A DNA stretch of 64,000 nucleotides from Mucilaginibacter sp. (GCF_965277465.1 NZ_CBDICW010000001.1:451654-515653); one strand, 5' to 3'; positions 1,943 through 24,411 are shown, counted from the stretch's first letter. The notes: generated by a model from the sequence alone, not told the origin. Translations and numbers: made by a program.

Positions 1943-4900
1943 ATGAAGTTAACCTACAAATTTTTCCAACTGCTAGCATTTATTTTATTATGTGTATCAG
2001 TTTCAGCAGTTCATGCTCAGCAAAGCCTCCGATGGATGCAACAGCCTGCCGTATCACCGGATGCTAAATGGATTGCTTTTGAATATAGAGGAAATGTTTA
2101 TAAGGTTTCTTCACACGGTGGTAAAGCGATTCCATTGACGAAAGAAATTTCTTATAATGGTTACCCGATATGGAGTCATGATGGTTCCAAGATTTCTTTT
2201 GCTTCAGATCGAAATGGGAATTTCGATGTTTACATCATGTCCTCTTCAGGTACCGAACCAAAACGATTAACATTTAACTCCACTAAAGACATCCCTTATG
2301 AATTTTCAAATGATGATGTTTCCGTCTATTTTGGAACTACCCGTCATGATGTTTATTCATCGGTCCGCTCTCCGCAGGATAGATTTTTTCTAAAACTTTT
2401 CAAAGTTCCTGCATCAGGAGGAGCCAGTTTGATGGTCAATAGCGCCGGAATGGAATTCGCTCATTTTAACCATCAGGGAGACTTAATTATTTTCCAGGAT
2501 AACAAAGGTAGTGTTGAAGACAGCTATAGAAAACACGCGACATCTTCGGTTACCAGAGATATCTGGAGTTTCAATACTAAGACGAACGTCTATTCTAAAT
2601 TGTCGCCTTTTCCTGGTGAGGACCGGGAACCATTGTGGGGCGACGGTGATGATTTTTACTATTTAAGCGAGCGAAACGGCAACCAAAATCTTTTTAAATC
2701 TTCAACTGCGGATACAGGCAAAATTAAACAACTCACGTTTTTTGAAAAAAATCCGGTTCGTAATCTTTCCAGGTCAGCAAACGGCAGTTTTGTCTTTACT
2801 TATAACGGCGATTTGTATACCTTTTCAGAGGGACGCATTCCGCATAAAATTATTGTCAAGTTTAGTGAGGCCGCCAAAGACAGCATTATTTCAATCCCGG
2901 TAAAAGGCTCATCCGGTGATTTCGATGTTTCTAAGGATGGAAAACAAATCGCCTTCGTAATGCGCGGAGACGTATATGTAACCTCTACAGATAGTAGCAG
3001 TATTACCCGGAGAATCACCAATACCCCTTATGTCGAAAGTATGGTGAATTTCAGCCCTGATGGTAAAAAGTTACTTTATTCCGTTGAACATGCAGGCTCC
3101 TGGGATATTAATCAGGTAACCATTGCAGACCCAGCTGAAAAATACTTTTACACTGCAAAAGCCCTAAATACAACCAGTATTATCGCCGGGCCGCAAGATG
3201 AATTTCAAGGGGTTTACTCACCCGACGGAACAAAAATCGCTTACCTGGAGAATAGGGAAATTCTGAAGAGTTACGATGTAACAACCAAAGCAATACATAC
3301 GCTGCTTCCCTATGGCATCAATTTTTCCATGAGAGATGGCGACCAATCATTCACCTGGTCACCAGACAGCAAATCTATTTTAGTGCAACATGGACATCAA
3401 AATATTATCCTGGTCAGTGATGATGGGTCTGGTAGGCGAATAAACGTAACAAAAAGCGCATTTGAAGATAAACTGCCGCATTGGGGACCTTCAGGCAGTA
3501 CCATGTATACACTTTCTGCAAAAAACGGACTAACCAACTTCACCCGCGATCAGAGTCAGTTTGATATATTAGAAACCTTTTTTGATAAACGGGCGTGGGA
3601 TGATGACCGGCTCGATAAAGCGGAAGATAAGTCTTTAAGTAAGATCGAAAAAATATCGACTTTATTTTCAGACACCACCTATCATACGAAGCAGCTTACA
3701 TCCTCTCCGGCGAAAATTAACGACTTTGCAGTATCCAGGGACGGCAAACTGATTTATCTGCTCGCCAGCTATGAAAACAATTTCGACCTCTATACACTGG
3801 ATATAAAGTCCAAAGAAATTCATCTTTTTTCAAAACTTAATGCACAAAATCCGAAGATGAAACTAACCAATAATGGAAATACCATAGTATTAATTGGTGA
3901 CGACAGCCAGTTTAAAACGATTGACGCTATTTCGGGGAAAGAAGTCGCTGTGACGATAAATATGAAATCGGAAATTAATATTACCCAGGAGCGTAATGGA
4001 GTTTATGACCATATATATCTATTGATAAAGAAGCGATTTATGGACCCGAAGTTAAACGGTGTTGACTTTGAGTATTATTACACCAATTATAGGCAGTTTC
4101 TTCCATACGTCAATAATAGTTACGATTTTAAAATCCTTGTATCCGAGTTGCTCGGCGAATTGAATACTTCACACCTGGTTCCTCAATTATCCGTCTCTAT
4201 TCCCCATGCGCAATACACGGCCTCTTTGGGTTTACTATATGACCTGACGCGAACAGACGACGGCCTTTTGGTAAAGGAAGTGATCGCCGGAGGTCCATTT
4301 GATAATGAAAGCACCAAAATGCGCACGGGCATGATTATCGATCAAATTGACGGTCGAAAAATAACTATTGACGACGACTGGACTAAATATCTAAATAACA
4401 AAACAGATTCTACCGTTAGGGTCAGTTTTCATGAGTTGAAGACCGGGAAACAATACAAAGAAAAAATTCGCGCAATTGAGTTGCGAGACGAGACCTATAA
4501 CTTAATGCAAGCACGCTGGGTGAAACAAATGGAACACTTAACGGATAGTCTTTCCGGCGGTAAAATTGGGTATGTTTACATTAGCCAGATGGATGATGAT
4601 AATTTCCGCTCCTTTTATGATAAAGTGTTAGGGGGCTATGCCGATAAAAAAGCTTTGATCGTTGATACCAGGTTTAATAACGGCGGCGATTTATTGGACT
4701 TACTGACATCCTTTTTGAGTGGTAAAATTTATTTGACTGAAAGAAGGCAGGGACAAGTGACTGAAGGCGGTGAGCCAGACACGAAATGGACCAAACCCAG
4801 TTGCATCATAATGAATGAGTCCAACTATTCCGATGCTTTCAGGGTGCCTTTTATTTACAAATATTTAGGATTAGGTAAAGTTATCGGTATGCCCGTACCC

Positions 4901-18618: not shown

Positions 18619-19677
18619 TTAGTTTAACGTATTACCATGTTTGGCAAATTCAGTGCATAAATCAAAGGCGGTTTGACTGCGTTGCAACCCCGTCCCGTAC
18701 ATGATGCTTTTAAATTTGCTTTCATCATCCTTGAAGTTTCGGACATTCTGAAAATATCCCGTAACCGCATTGTAAGCACCAAACAAAGTTCCTTTTGTGG
18801 TCGCTTCCTGCTGTGTTGGGCTGGTTAGGGCATATTCCATAACACTACTTACCATATTATTATAAGTAGTGCTTAATTCGTCCTGCTTCCCGTTTTGCAG
18901 ATTTTGCAATACTTCCTTATTCGGTGCCATTGCAATTTGTATCAAATGCTTAACGGCATTATCTGTAATACGGATTTTCGACCAATGGTTAAACACTTCT
19001 TCCAGTTCGTCGGCTAACTGGTTGGTAATCCCTAATAATTGATGTGCTTGTTTTAGCCTTTCGTTTGCGCTGGCGGTATGCCGTATTTTAATGCCGTTGC
19101 TATGGTTACGCATGGCAGCGTTTAACGTATTGGCGCAAACTATCCTAACAGGTGTAAAAGCTGCGGTAATACTGCCGTAACCATCGTGCGAAGTAGTTAA
19201 AAACAAATACTGCTCTATTAAATCATCTTTTCCAACCCTGATATAATCGGGCAGTTTAGCGGTAATAAAAATACGCTCCCCTTTGCCCAACGCTCCGGCG
19301 GTTTCGTATAAAATCCCGTCCTTACCCCCTACGATGCTATCGAAAAACTCAAAGGCGTTTACATTCTGTACCACTTCGTAATCTTTGCCAACTACGCCCA
19401 AAACTTGTTCAGTATCGTTGCGGATGGTGGCGTAAAAATCGGGCACTTCAATTTCGGGGATTAAAATATCCATGTCGGGGTCGCCTGTATGATTTTCAGT
19501 ATCATACGTAAATAAAGGGCGTTTTTCAACGGTGTAGTTTAACCCTGCGTGTATAATCGCTTCTGCGCTCGTGGGATAATCTGTAATGATCTGCCCTAAG
19601 TTGTGCCAGGCTTTTTCCTTTACTGAAAAAAAACTGTGCTTTGCTGTTTGCTCGTTATAATTAAGATTGTGTGCCAT
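18619..19677 (-). CDS. DUF932 domain protein (phage/plasmid-like protein, TIGR03299-type)
   Basis: 352 aa. N-terminus MAHNLNYNEQTAKHSFFSVKEKAWHNLGQII. Core LGVVGKDYEVVQNVNAFEFFD...ETAGALGKGERIFITAKLP...FLTTSHDGYGSITAAFTPVRIVCANTL matches my recollection of the DUF932 family. Confidence 0.8.
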   Translation of the reverse strand: MAHNLNYNEQTAKHSFFSVKEKAWHNLGQIITDYPTSAEAIIHAGLNYTVEKRPLFTYDTENHTGDPDMDILIPEIEVPDFYATIRNDTEQVLGVVGKDYEVVQNVNAFEFFDSIVGGKDGILYETAGALGKGERIFITAKLPDYIRVGKDDLIEQYLFLTTSHDGYGSITAAFTPVRIVCANTLNAAMRNHSNGIKIRHTASANERLKQAHQLLGITNQLADELEEVFNHWSKIRITDNAVKHLIQIAMAPNKEVLQNLQNGKQDELSTTYNNMVSSVMEYALTSPTQQEATTKGTLFGAYNAVTGYFQNVRNFKDDESKFKSIMYGTGLQRSQTAFDLCTEFAKHGNTLN

Positions 19678-21271: not shown

Positions 21272-21829
21272 TTAAAGTTTAGCCACCATTTGCCGGGCTT
21301 CCTGTACCAGTTCCTCTTTTTCTTTAACCGATGTTGTGAAGCCGAAATTTTCCCGTGCTTTGGCATATTGGTTTAGGATGTATTGGAATTTGATTTTGAG
21401 ACTTTCTTTGGTTTCCAGTTTTTCCGCGATTGTTTTAATCAGACGCTCCGTTTCCGCTGATTTTTCGATGTGTGCCTGGTGACTATTTATTAAATCTTTA
21501 TTCGCTTTCAACACCTGACCGTTAAAGCAGTCCAGTATTTTGATTTGGGATTGTACCATGCGGTCAACTTCGGTCTTGACAGGAATTAGTATTTTTTCTT
21601 CCTGCGCCCGGATGAAGCGGATGTAAGTGTCATGATTTTTAACAAGCGTATTTTTAAGTATTTCATCATTGATGTCAGAAGGGTCCTTTTTGGTACGGTG
21701 GAAATATTCTACCATCTTATTGAAGAACTGGAACTTGCTTAAGCTGAATTTTTGGGAAAGTTTACTAAGCTTTTCGTCTGTCTCCGCTGAAAAACGGAGG
21801 GTCTTGCTATAATTGTCTTTTGTGCTCAT
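21272..21829 (-). CDS. hypothetical protein; possible small oriT-binding mobilization accessory protein (BfmA/BtgA-like, unverified)
   Basis: 185 aa. The N-terminus TLRFSAETDEKLSKLSQKF looks ribbon-helix-helix-like and the rest is predicted coiled-coil. The family assignment is from memory only. Confidence 0.4.
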   Translation of the reverse strand: MSTKDNYSKTLRFSAETDEKLSKLSQKFSLSKFQFFNKMVEYFHRTKKDPSDINDEILKNTLVKNHDTYIRFIRAQEEKILIPVKTEVDRMVQSQIKILDCFNGQVLKANKDLINSHQAHIEKSAETERLIKTIAEKLETKESLKIKFQYILNQYAKARENFGFTTSVKEKEELVQEARQMVAKL

Positions 21830-22146
21830 TTTGTTTGTACTTATAAGGTGACTTATGGTTATTTCGGCCTTGCCGATAGTCCTGGGGCCTCAACTTATAC
21901 CAGGAGTATAAGTTAACCCCCCGTAGCGATAGCGTAGGGCAAGCAAAGTAGGGCTCTGCCCAACTTCCGCTTGCTCCATTTTTTTTCAAAAATGGACGCG
22001 GTTAAAACTCCAAACGATGCTTCGCACCGAAGCCGCTTGCCGGCTGCAATACCGCTTCGCGGGTTGCACCGGGGCGGCGCTTGTCCCTGTGGGCTAAATT
22101 CGCTGTCGCGGTGAATAAGAAATGGCAGCTACTTCACTTTTAACAA

Positions 22147-22683
22147 TTACAAATCATCCGATTTATACCCAATTCTTTTGCGCGGTATCGGTTCATTTTT
22201 CTTTTCCAATAGTTCATCCAAATAGCGGAATACGATCTCCATGTTTTTATCCTGGTTATCCAACTTTGATTTTATTTTTTCCACCTCTAATCGTAAATCA
22301 GTATTATCAAACAGCATTTGCCGCAGTTTGGTGAAAATGCGAATGATCTGTATGTTGACCTTAATCGCCCGTTCGCTGTTTAAAACGCTGGATAACATAG
22401 CAACTCCCTGTTCGGTAAAACAAAAAGGAACATACCTTAAACCTTGTTGGTCTGATTTGGAGGTCACAAATTGTGACCTCCAAATTTGAAATTCCTCTTT
22501 ATCCATTTCAAACATAAAATCCTCCGGGAACCTTACGATGTTACGTTTTACAGACTGTTTCAAAACCTTTGTTTCTACTTGGTATAGCTTAGCCAGATCA
22601 CGGTCTAACATAACTTTATGATCCCTTATGTAATAGATTTGGTTCATTACTATTTCATCGGGTATTAGTGCGTTCTCTTCCAT
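22147..22683 (-). CDS. ORF6N (KilA-N-like) domain DNA-binding protein
   Basis: IYYIRDHKVMLDRDLAKLYQVETKVLKQSVKRNIVRFPEDFMFEM...WRSQFVTS...FCFTEQGVAMLSSVLNSERAIKVNIQIIRIF is the characteristic ORF6N pattern. Confidence 0.85.
   Translation of the reverse strand: MEENALIPDEIVMNQIYYIRDHKVMLDRDLAKLYQVETKVLKQSVKRNIVRFPEDFMFEMDKEEFQIWRSQFVTSKSDQQGLRYVPFCFTEQGVAMLSSVLNSERAIKVNIQIIRIFTKLRQMLFDNTDLRLEVEKIKSKLDNQDKNMEIVFRYLDELLEKKNEPIPRKRIGYKSDDL
22455..22485. repeat. 31-bp perfect palindrome P1, inside the ORF6N coding sequence
   Basis: ATTTGGAGGTCACAA-A-TTGTGACCTCCAAAT: 15-bp arms around a central A. It encodes WRSQFVTSK. Confidence 0.9.
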
Positions 22684-22713
22684 AATTTGGATGCTTTTAA
22701 TTTGTCTTAAATT

Positions 22714-22744
22714 AACTTAAGGTCGCAAATTGCGACCTTAAGTT
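22714..22744. repeat. 31-bp perfect palindrome P2, in the integrase/ORF6N intergenic region (also a possible integrase terminator)
   Basis: AACTTAAGGTCGCAA-A-TTGCGACCTTAAGTT. It shares the core AGGTC(A/G)CAAATTG(T/C)GACCT with P1. Confidence 0.9.
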
Positions 22745-22754
22745 TTTGAGTAAT

Positions 22755-23984
22755 TTATTCATTAGCAAATTTTTTCCTAAGCAATGCCATATCCTTACTG
22801 ACTTTCAAATCCAAAACTTTTGCATAATGCTGTGTGGTTTTAATATTGGTGTGACCTAACATCTTGCTCACACTTTCGATAGGTACGCCATTAGATAAAG
22901 TTACCGTTGTAGCGAATGTGTGCCGGGCCATGTGAAATGTGAGCGTTTTAGTAATACCGCATATATCAGCTATTTCCTTTAAGTAGCTGTTCATCCGTTG
23001 ATTACTCAAAACAGGCAAAACAAGGTTCTTATTTACGCATTGCGGGTGATCGGCGTATTTGTTTACAATGTCGGCGGCTATGGCTAATAACGGTATTCTT
23101 GAATTGGTATCTGTTTTTTGCCTTGTTGTAAATATCCATTGTTCACCGTCAACACCTTTAGCTATTTGGTGGCGTTGTAATTTCTGCACATCTGCATAAC
23201 ATAAGCCGGTATAACAGCAGAATACAAATATATCCCGCACCTGTATCAGCCTTTCAATAGTGATACCCTTAATCACTATGGCCTCCAGTTCATTCTGCAT
23301 TAAAAACTCTTTTTCTTTCGCTTTGGCCTTTGATCTGTAATTGATAAATGGATTATCACTTAACCATTTGTTAGCTAAACAATTGTTAACGATCTTTTTT
23401 AGGTGCTTTACATATTTGGCGGCAGATACCCCGCTGCATTTGCATACCGTTTTTAGGTAAAATTCATAATTGACAATAAAGGCATGGTTCAAACTTTTAA
23501 TATCCATATCAGCTATGCCATATTGATGCTGCACAAACAACGACAAGTGTTTATATGAACTGCGATAACTTTTAAGGGTGTTGGCTACAAAGCCATTGCC
23601 AATTAATGCTTTTACCTGGTCGTTATGCTCATTAAATAACGCTACTATATAGTAGGGTTTTTCTGCACGGCCAATAAATTGATTACGTAACCTGTCGGCG
23701 GTAATACTTTCACCTGCTCCAATTAGTTGCTGGTGCGCATTCATTACTTTGGCTTGCAACGTGTCTAAGTAACTGTTTAAAGCCCTTACTTCCGATTTAG
23801 TGCCAATGCCCCGCCCAGCGTGGTTGTTCCACCCTGATGGCTCACAATCCCGTCCGGCAGACACTTCCGAACGTTTGCCATTAACGGTGATACGCATATA
23901 GACAGGCATGTTACCTGATACGTAAGCTTTTTGTTTCTTTAAATAAAAAAGCAGATTGAAATTAGTTTTCATGATTACAAGCAT
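22755..23984 (-). CDS. tyrosine-type site-specific integrase (Bacteroidota mobile-element type)
   Basis: The C-terminal catalytic region contains HMARHTFATTV and LGHTNIKTTQHYAKV. The N-terminal part is Arm/SAM-like (FYLKKQKAY...PVYMRITVNGKR). The track start at 23999 is a TTG inside a -7 box, so I moved the start to the first ATG (MLVIMKT...); the ATG at 23972 is also possible. Confidence 0.9.
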   Translation of the reverse strand: MLVIMKTNFNLLFYLKKQKAYVSGNMPVYMRITVNGKRSEVSAGRDCEPSGWNNHAGRGIGTKSEVRALNSYLDTLQAKVMNAHQQLIGAGESITADRLRNQFIGRAEKPYYIVALFNEHNDQVKALIGNGFVANTLKSYRSSYKHLSLFVQHQYGIADMDIKSLNHAFIVNYEFYLKTVCKCSGVSAAKYVKHLKKIVNNCLANKWLSDNPFINYRSKAKAKEKEFLMQNELEAIVIKGITIERLIQVRDIFVFCCYTGLCYADVQKLQRHQIAKGVDGEQWIFTTRQKTDTNSRIPLLAIAADIVNKYADHPQCVNKNLVLPVLSNQRMNSYLKEIADICGITKTLTFHMARHTFATTVTLSNGVPIESVSKMLGHTNIKTTQHYAKVLDLKVSKDMALLRKKFANE

Positions 23985-23996
23985 TAAAAAGTTAAA

Positions 23997-24004
23997 CAAA
24001 TGTA
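23997..24004 (-). promoter_or_regulatory. Bacteroidota -7 promoter box (TACATTTG) for the integrase
   Basis: Exact match to TAnnTTTG on the minus strand, immediately upstream of the first ATG. Confidence 0.45.
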
Positions 24005-24160
24005 TGCTTGCAACTAATAGGTATCAAGATGTTCAATTATTGAACTGGTTGACAGTCAATAATTTACAGCGTTTTTGGTGAGTAGTAACTTGACTTTATG
24101 GTACTCACCGAATTACTCACTTTTTTAACGTGATTTGGTGCATATTTTGGTGTTTTGACC

Positions 24161-24197
24161 AAAAAACAAAAGCCTGCAATCATTTGATTTGCAGGCT
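24161..24197 (-). terminator. rho-independent terminator downstream of tRNA-Arg
   Basis: On the minus strand: AGCCTGCAA-ATCAAATGA-TTGCAGGCT followed by TTTGTTTTTT. Confidence 0.7.
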
Positions 24198-24224
24198 TTT
24201 ATCGTATTTTGATATTGATTTTAG

Positions 24225-24296
24225 TGGTCCCGACGAGAATCGAACTCATATCTAGAGTTTAGGAAACTCCTATTCTATCCGTTGAACTACGGGACC
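24225..24296 (-). tRNA. tRNA-Arg (anticodon CCT)
   Basis: Manual cloverleaf fold. Acceptor stem GGTCCCG/CGGGACC; D stem GTTC/GAAT; anticodon stem GGAGT/ACTCT with loop TTCCTAA; T arm ATGAG-TTCGATT-CTCGT; discriminator A. CCA is not encoded. Confidence 0.9.
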
Positions 24297-24411
24297 GGTT
24301 TGCTTTACGCGGATTTTGAATGTGCAAATGTGCGAATTTTGAACGAGTTAGTCAACAAACATTTGCAGTTATGCGTATTTGCCTTTTTAACGTACTAATT
24401 GCAGTTGCGCA

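Follow-up and report, generated by a model that had tools for sequence, protein, structure and literature searches.

Why does a gene of the ORF6N family carry a perfect DNA palindrome inside its own coding sequence, and why does a second palindrome with the same core lie directly in front of it? The question is raised by a stretch of 64,000 nucleotides from Mucilaginibacter sp. (GCF_965277465.1 NZ_CBDICW010000001.1:451654-515653), referred to here as the window, in which the two palindromes P1 and P2 occur within and upstream of an ORF6N gene of 178 aa on the minus strand (22147..22683). Judged from sequence comparison, P1 and P2 are two copies of a palindromic DNA site belonging to ORF6N genes. 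That both serve as operators, i.e., as predicted binding sites of a dimeric ORF6N protein, is the favored reading, whose chances are put at about even.

P1 (22455..22485, no strand assigned) is a perfect intragenic palindrome of 31 bp with the sequence ATTTGGAGGTCACAA-A-TTGTGACCTCCAAAT, in which arms of 15 nt flank a single central base at position 22470. It covers ORF6N codons 67-76 (IWRSQFVTSK) and, having A:T at ±4, belongs to the TCACAA type. P2 (22714..22744, likewise without strand) is a non-coding perfect palindrome of the same length and arm size, with the sequence AACTTAAGGTCGCAA-A-TTGCGACCTTAAGTT, a single central base at 22729, and G:C at ±4 (TCGCAA type). In both palindromes 15 of 15 positions are paired, and their centers are 259 bp apart. 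P2 is located in the 71-nt gap between the stop of a tyrosine integrase gene (22755) and the ORF6N ATG (22683), where it begins 10 nt past the integrase stop, spans -61 to -31 relative to the ATG, and is centered 46 nt 5' of it. Translated on the gene strand, P2 reads NLRSQFATLS*. A first-pass annotation of the window had described two perfect 31-bp palindromes with 15-bp arms, a central A, and this center distance, which was confirmed exactly. It had also placed P1 at WRSQFVTSK within ORF6N and P2 between the integrase stop and the ORF6N start, and had read P2 as NLRSQFATL in one frame, with which coordinates and translation agree.

The 19-bp core AGGTCRCAAATTGYGACCT was matched in the window by P1 and P2 only, compared to a mean of 0.03 matches in 100 shuffles. 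One further near-match was found genome-wide (5.08 Mb), and it lies inside the second and only other ORF6N gene of the genome, on the second contig.

Palindromes within and beside ORF6N genes

Homologues were sampled from many phyla (80 ORF6N genes) and from the bacterial family of the window (30 genes), which yielded 110 genes in total, drawn from Bacteroidota, Omnitrophota, Planctomycetota, Nitrospinota, Patescibacteria, and others. Within that family, at least one ORF6N gene was present in 169 of 301 genomes. The codons aligned with IWRSQFVTSK form a palindrome in 103 of the 110 genes at a threshold of at least 11 of 15 Watson-Crick positions, and the center of this internal palindrome is the first base of the F/I codon, a constant codon base across those genes. 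For a codon null in 108 genes, each peptide was kept and synonymous codons were resampled from the same genes. The observed palindromes had a mean of 12.6 out of 15 pairs compared to 6.1 out of 15 with resampled codons, with P<0.01 in 100 of 108 genes. P1 of the window has 15 of 15 pairs, whereas its peptide is expected to reach 7.5 when codons are resampled (P<0.001). The first-pass annotation had proposed to check whether codon choice at RSQF(V/A)TS is bound to the palindrome, and across the family the answer is positive.

The pairing extends to changes of the encoded amino acids. The third base of Ser(-2) and the second base of the V/A/G codon are Watson-Crick paired in 100 of 108 genes through three pair types, i.e., TCA with GTG (Val), TCG with GCG (Ala), and AGC with GGC (Gly). 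Among the amino acids, R/AGG covaries with T/ACC, K/AAG with T/ACT, K/AAA with I/ATT, M/ATG with T/ACA, W/TGG with S/TCC, L/TTG with S/TCA, and F/TTC or C/TGC with Gly. The consensus of the site-encoding peptide is x(W/L)(R/K)SQ(F/I)xT(S/L)x, and the central ±1 pair is the least conserved of the internal palindrome (77 of 108 genes). Because of the excess over synonymous-codon resampling and the covarying codons and amino acids, palindromes of the P1 type are, on this comparative evidence, selected or otherwise maintained as DNA, and conservation of the peptide is no explanation for them.

Second ORF6N genes, tandem or fragmentary, adjoin the first at the loci L007, L013, L040, L042, L052, L062, L073, and L079. 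Each of these has a palindrome of its own, often of a different ±4 type.

Non-coding palindromes with a CAA-W-TTG center were found beside ORF6N genes and almost nowhere else in ~450 kb of flanking sequence. An upstream copy within 200 nt was present in 15 of the 110 loci, in 12 of which it was centered 28-60 nt before the start codon, and other extragenic copies were located 11-124 nt past the stop codon. Many extragenic copies come immediately after a stop codon, either that of an upstream gene or that of a convergent one. The outer arm (AACTTGA...) and the CAA-W-TTG center are conserved in the non-coding copies. Upstream copies were more frequent where the internal palindrome is missing, with 4 of 8 such genes compared to 11 of 102 among the rest (Fisher P = 0.012).

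Relatives of the window integrase carry an ORF6N-type palindrome after the integrase stop in 8 of 9 cases with a downstream ORF6N gene, compared to 3 of 20 without (Fisher P = 0.0003). Integrases without ORF6N downstream are followed by ordinary terminators or by nothing. Since the palindrome follows integrases with ORF6N and seldom those without, P2 is best assigned, at the level of sequence, to the ORF6N unit and not to the integrase. The recurrence of an upstream P2-like site, a further check named in the first-pass annotation, is therefore borne out both among the 110 loci and among the related modules.

A second integrase-ORF6N module is present in the same genome on the second contig (L004, at ~428,000), with an integrase 36% and an ORF6N protein 68% identical to those of the window. 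Its upstream palindrome at 1823-1849, CTTGATATCACAA-T-TTGTGATATCAAG, is centered 42 nt before the ATG, and its internal one lies near 1575-1605. Both are of the TCACAA type, and the protein has Gln at residue 43. In Pedobacter hiemivivus (L016), the internal palindrome is lost and three near-identical 31-bp palindromes, ATCTTGCTATTCCAA-A-TTGGAATAGCAAGAT, flank the gene (2740-2870 and 3538-3568). Upstream of the gene, each of the two copies is embedded in a 98-bp direct repeat that still reads like ORF6N coding sequence around the motif (...EEFK-ILLFQIGIAR), with a weak match to a profile hidden Markov model (HMM) of ORF6N (E 2e-3). Extragenic copies can thus arise by partial gene duplication. 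As a separate observation, the ORF6N gene of Pedobacter westerhofensis (L012) has an in-frame TAA directly before its palindrome (3190-3200) and is therefore probably a pseudogene; a hairpin occurs there at 2950-2985.

Residue 43 and the ±4 base pair

The ORF6N protein of the window matches Pfam PF10543 with 117.4 bits (cut-off 27.8; E 3.4e-34) over profile positions 1-86 of 86, and the PADLOC PDC-S05 profile PDLC04856 with residues 1-174 on profile positions 1-176 of 177 (E 4.3e-65). Its AlphaFold2 model (mean pLDDT 76.6) consists of an N-terminal ORF6N domain followed by long C-terminal helices at residues 104-141 and 145-162, which presumably form a dimerizing coiled coil. A helix-turn-helix (HTH) is modeled with helices 27-34 and 38-47, the second of which is encoded at 22543..22572 on the minus strand (codons 38-47, TKVLKQSVKR) and includes codon 43 (Gln; 22555-22557, minus strand). 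The peptide encoded by P1 runs from the last part of helix 62-71 into a loop, where pLDDT is <50 at residues 73-80, and indels adjoin the peptide in the homologue alignment. Given the low-confidence loop and the adjoining indels, this part of the protein is, as far as the model goes, a permissive region. A PDB sequence search with ORF6N returned nothing relevant, and Foldseek on the model gave no significant match, the top ones being Dachshund/SKI winged-helix and MerR/MarR folds with E of at least 0.18.

Residue 43 of the predicted recognition helix (38-47) was compared with the triplet at -6 to -4 of the internal palindrome. Q43 was accompanied by TCA in 42 of 42 genes, E43 by TCG in 26 of 27, R43 by a triplet ending in C, mostly AGC, in 27 of 28, and K43 by TTC in 5 of 5. 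Overall, the ±4 base is the one predicted from residue 43 in 96 of 103 genes, with Q going with A, E with G, and R or K with C. Trees built without the helix and palindrome columns required 33-39 state changes compared to ~52 for shuffled labels. In phylogenetically independent pairs the base followed the residue in 5 of 5 (Q/A), 8 of 8 (E/G), and ~6.5 of 7 (R/C) comparisons. Gln-Ade, Glu-Cyt, Arg-Gua, and Lys-Gua are the classical preferred contacts between side chains and bases.

The association extends to non-coding sites. Upstream sites were cognate to residue 43 in 13 of 20 loci vs 0.37 expected (P = 0.01), and the residue-43 rule holds for each of the four genes that depend solely on an upstream copy. 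In two closely related modules (L121 and L122), 33-bp upstream palindromes differ solely at ±4, with A:T in the one and G:C in the other, and the proteins have Q43 and E43, respectively. The internal palindrome of both has TCG, and DNA identity between the two jumps from ~75% to ~97% just before it, which points to a recombination breakpoint inside the gene. The difference between P1 and P2 at ±4 thus falls, by comparison within the family, on its switch position.

The operator reading and its alternatives

In the operator reading, the ORF6N protein would dimerize through its C-terminal helices and bind the dyad-symmetric site with its HTH, with residue 43 of the recognition helix reading the ±4 base pair. 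A dimer bound to the upstream copy would occupy the region 31-61 nt before the ATG, where the core promoter is expected, and would thereby repress its own gene; the intragenic copy, when bound, may strengthen this repression. The first-pass annotation had listed operators for the ORF6N protein among four options, and this one is the best supported. Its treatment of the ±4 swap as a compensatory change has to be revised, as the swap appears not to be neutral and covaries with residue 43, so that P1 would match the resident protein and P2 would not.

Several observations weigh against the operator reading. The window protein has Q43, for which P1 (TCACAA) is cognate and P2 (TCGCAA) non-cognate. 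Among the upstream sites, 7 of 20 are non-cognate, and none of the four next to R43 genes fit. In the L121/L122 pair, L121 has a Q43 gene with a TCG internal site, its breakpoint lying between the helix codons and the palindrome. Since helix codons and palindrome are just 60-90 nt apart, part of the association between residue 43 and ±4 may be due to the two being inherited together in recombining cassettes. Approximately 40% of integrase-ORF6N modules lack an upstream copy, and in two of them (L012 and L115) the place of P2, ~22 nt before the ATG, is taken by an ordinary GC-rich hairpin that ends in a TTTT tail. In relatives, upstream and internal sites are spaced 255-273 bp apart without helical phasing. 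A promoter motif of the Bacteroidota type could not be located with respect to P2, with no TAnnTTTG box at proper spacing and no transcription start placed; sigma-70 promoter scans are not applicable to Bacteroidota. Finally, 17 within-locus site pairs differ at 74 arm positions, yet each site is self-complementary at ~75-80% of them, which is not explained by a single protein reading duplex DNA.

As symmetry persists even where the two copies within a locus have different bases, a second force probably acts on it, by which pairing itself is maintained through hairpin or cruciform formation or through template-switch correction of quasi-palindromes. The latter is an established mutational mechanism.

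The mismatch of P2 was traced by comparison with the closest module (L092, also sampled as L117), whose integrase is ~88% identical to that of the window overall and 93% over the C-terminal part. Its ORF6N protein has E43, and both of its sites have TCG. Only two differences separate its upstream site from P2, namely the center base and, at ±10, a compensated G>A / C>T pair. DNA identity between the two modules is 80-90% over the integrase, 50-73% over ORF6N nt 0-340, which include the helix and P1, and 92% over nt 400-460. By these identities, the segment for the DNA-binding domain has been replaced or has strongly diverged between the window and this relative, with P2 left behind, and the mosaic profile suggests an exchange of the segment between related islands. 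P2 is orthologous to the cognate upstream site of this E43 relative. Since both ORF6N proteins of the genome are of the Q type, P2 appears to be without a cognate reader in it. From the mismatch of Q43 with G:C and the diverged segment, it follows that P2 is most likely a weaker or left-over putative operator.

A broader reading, held tentatively and with less confidence than the operators themselves, takes the Pfam signature of ORF6N ('LRSQxxTS') as mainly the translation of the gene's own DNA site. The gene would be a portable cassette of reader and site, in which HTH residue 43 sets ±4 (Q to A, E to G, R/K to C) and the site lies 60-90 nt past the helix codons. Such cassettes would be exchanged between mobile elements and defense islands and would leave mismatched upstream sites such as P2 as dead operators or as inputs for ORF6N proteins of other elements or phages.

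The strongest alternative, although judged rather unlikely, is that the palindromes act as nucleic-acid hairpins and not as duplex operators. P2 would serve in termination, attenuation, or processing of the transcript between the two cistrons and P1 in pausing or processing within the gene, or both would form DNA hairpins or cruciforms, e.g., while the mobilizable island is single-stranded, and ORF6N might or might not recognize the stem. Both palindromes fold into a 14-bp stem with a 3-nt loop, with RNA energies of -23.0 and -20.8 kcal/mol and z-scores of -6.6 and -8.1 for P1 and P2, respectively, and perfect arms of 14-17 bp exceed the needs of an operator. Changes in non-coding copies are compensated (±10 between P2 and the site of its closest relative, ±7/8 among P2-like sites), and two differing sites of one locus each keep their own pairing. 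The weakly conserved ±1 pair is as expected of a loop. The position of many extragenic copies directly after stop codons, the ordinary terminator hairpins at the same position in L012 and L115, and a BfmA/BtgA-like mobilization gene in the island also fit a hairpin.

Against hairpins stands the result of a terminator scan of 21800-24300 on both strands, in which no terminator-like site was found and no T tract follows P1 or P2. The tail of P2 on the gene strand is AAUUUAAGAC, and the GC-rich stem and T/U tract of an intrinsic (Rho-independent) terminator are not combined there. The corresponding option of the first-pass annotation, hairpins as integrase terminator and intragenic attenuator, would fit the stable stems, but neither site has a terminator-like T tract. 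In an Rfam covariance-model search, only sub-threshold chance matches (microRNA and rivX models) were obtained at P1 and P2 besides the tRNA. The conserved sequence of the outer arm and CAA-W-TTG center in non-coding copies is needless for a pure structure, and the covariation of residue 43 with ±4 is left unexplained. Mismatches in non-coding copies do not favor G·T over A·C (hand count ~7 vs 6); in coding copies the R3/T2 pair shows A·C 15 times and G·T once, at a position confounded by codon and amino-acid constraints. In addition, the element occurs inside the coding sequence, upstream, or downstream, which speaks against a function that depends on translating these codons.

It is improbable that the palindromes have no present function, i.e., that a self-perpetuating quasi-palindrome sits in a permissive loop and is re-perfected by template switching, with the extragenic copies including P2 being decaying fragments of ORF6N genes. 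The low-confidence, indel-prone loop, the perfect symmetry at positions that differ freely between copies, the coding-like outer arms retained in non-coding copies, the upstream repeats of P. hiemivivus that still resemble ORF6N coding sequence, and the known mutational mechanism are in line with it. However, a single codon position is conserved across many phyla, the site is linked to residue 43, and upstream copies are enriched where the internal one is lost and cluster 28-60 nt before the ATG. An HMM built from the 80 homologues detected no second ORF6N domain fragment in the window and no ORF6N-like sequence flanking P2 or its orthologues, so that the earlier suggestion of P2 as a relic of a second ORF6N copy is unsupported.

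Least of all do P1 and P2 appear to be core-type sites of the adjacent tyrosine recombinase that would make the 259-bp segment with the ORF6N 5' end invertible or excisable, an option of the first-pass annotation that found no support: the integrase lies 10 nt from P2, the 19-bp core is shared, and palindromes are both direct and inverted repeats, but the palindromes track ORF6N and not the integrase, an integrase neighbor is missing from the majority of the 110 ORF6N genes (a homologue of the window integrase is nearby in only 3 of 82 loci searched, L004-L085, namely the window's own, the paralogue L004, and L012), ~11 modules with two sites are all assembled in the orientation that keeps the ORF6N frame (the gene of L137 being fragmented), and the integrase, with its Arm-DNA-bind_5 domain and its location next to a tRNA gene, belongs to the type that integrates elements.

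Island context, significance, and known systems

All relevant genes of the locus, from the tRNA to DUF932, are encoded on the minus strand. The tyrosine integrase (22755..23999; Pfam Phage_integrase, Phage_int_SAM_5, and Arm-DNA-bind_5) is the upstream neighbor of ORF6N in a recurrent integrase-ORF6N module, four examples of which have an intergenic distance of just ~15-20 nt. A tRNA-Arg(CCT) gene (24224..24296) adjoins the integrase end of the island. On the other side of ORF6N, a GC-rich gap of 317 bp (21830-22146) separates it from a gene for a 185-aa protein (21272..21829) with a mobilization N-terminal domain of the BfmA/BtgA family (NCBIfam NF041200, E 1.9e-12), followed by a DUF932 gene assigned by Pfam (18619..19677). 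From the BfmA/BtgA-like domain, the island beside tRNA-Arg looks mobilizable. The GC-rich gap is a candidate origin of transfer (oriT), and no relaxase was identified. Attachment-site (att) direct repeats of the tRNA-Arg 3' end, sought as bounds of the island, were not found.

ORF6N genes are very common and sit in mobile elements, phages, and defense islands. Should the palindrome be the protein's own site, each ORF6N gene would have its own operator, and its targets would be predictable from sequence by a simple residue-to-base rule that a single Q43E swap can test. The "protein motif" of Pfam would be reinterpreted as a constrained DNA element, and the case would clearly exemplify a protein sequence that has evolved in the service of DNA symmetry. 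For the window, the two palindromes would be explained, and the integrase-ORF6N island would be a mosaic in which regulator and upstream site have ceased to match. A literature search returned no paper on a palindrome in ORF6N genes and none with both 'KilA-N' and 'palindrome', and the feature is apparently undescribed.

Among known systems, the window protein matches the profile of the PDC-S05 defense candidates of PADLOC over its full length. One PDC-S05 representative is reported to have lowered T7 and T5 plating ~1000-fold in E. coli B (preprint 10.1101/2024.09.26.614923). A Virulence_RhuM domain is attributed to this representative (10.1101/2024.09.26.614923), whereas the 178-aa protein of the window is without one, and the palindrome is unmentioned in the PADLOC and preprint sources.

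P2 resembles a Rho-independent terminator as a stable stem-loop 10 nt past the integrase stop, at a position where L012 and L115 have such a terminator. It differs in the missing T tract, in sharing its sequence with the internal palindrome of ORF6N, and in being dependent on a downstream ORF6N gene for its presence.

Operator pairs with one partner in coding sequence, known from lacO1/O2 and galOE/OI, are among the closest analogues. The arrangement in the window is similar in that a promoter-near site is accompanied by a second site a few hundred bp downstream in the gene (259 bp), both with dyad symmetry and with a presumed dimeric regulator. In contrast to these pairs, the internal site of ORF6N lies in the regulator's own gene, the spacing of 255-273 bp is not helically phased, and P1 and P2 differ at the position that apparently sets specificity.

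Equally among the closest analogues are sites acting in cis within the gene of their own binding protein, such as parS in spo0J/parB, the iterons of ori-lambda in gene O, and the pT181 origin in repC. The ORF6N site is likewise inside the coding sequence of its presumed cognate DNA-binding protein, with extra copies nearby, and protein specificity residues and site bases vary together as in Rep families. ORF6N differs from parS, ori-lambda, and pT181 in having no partition, initiator, or nuclease domain, and its binding is predicted from sequence. It differs further in that the site covers the signature peptide of the family, where symmetry is kept at the cost of amino-acid changes.

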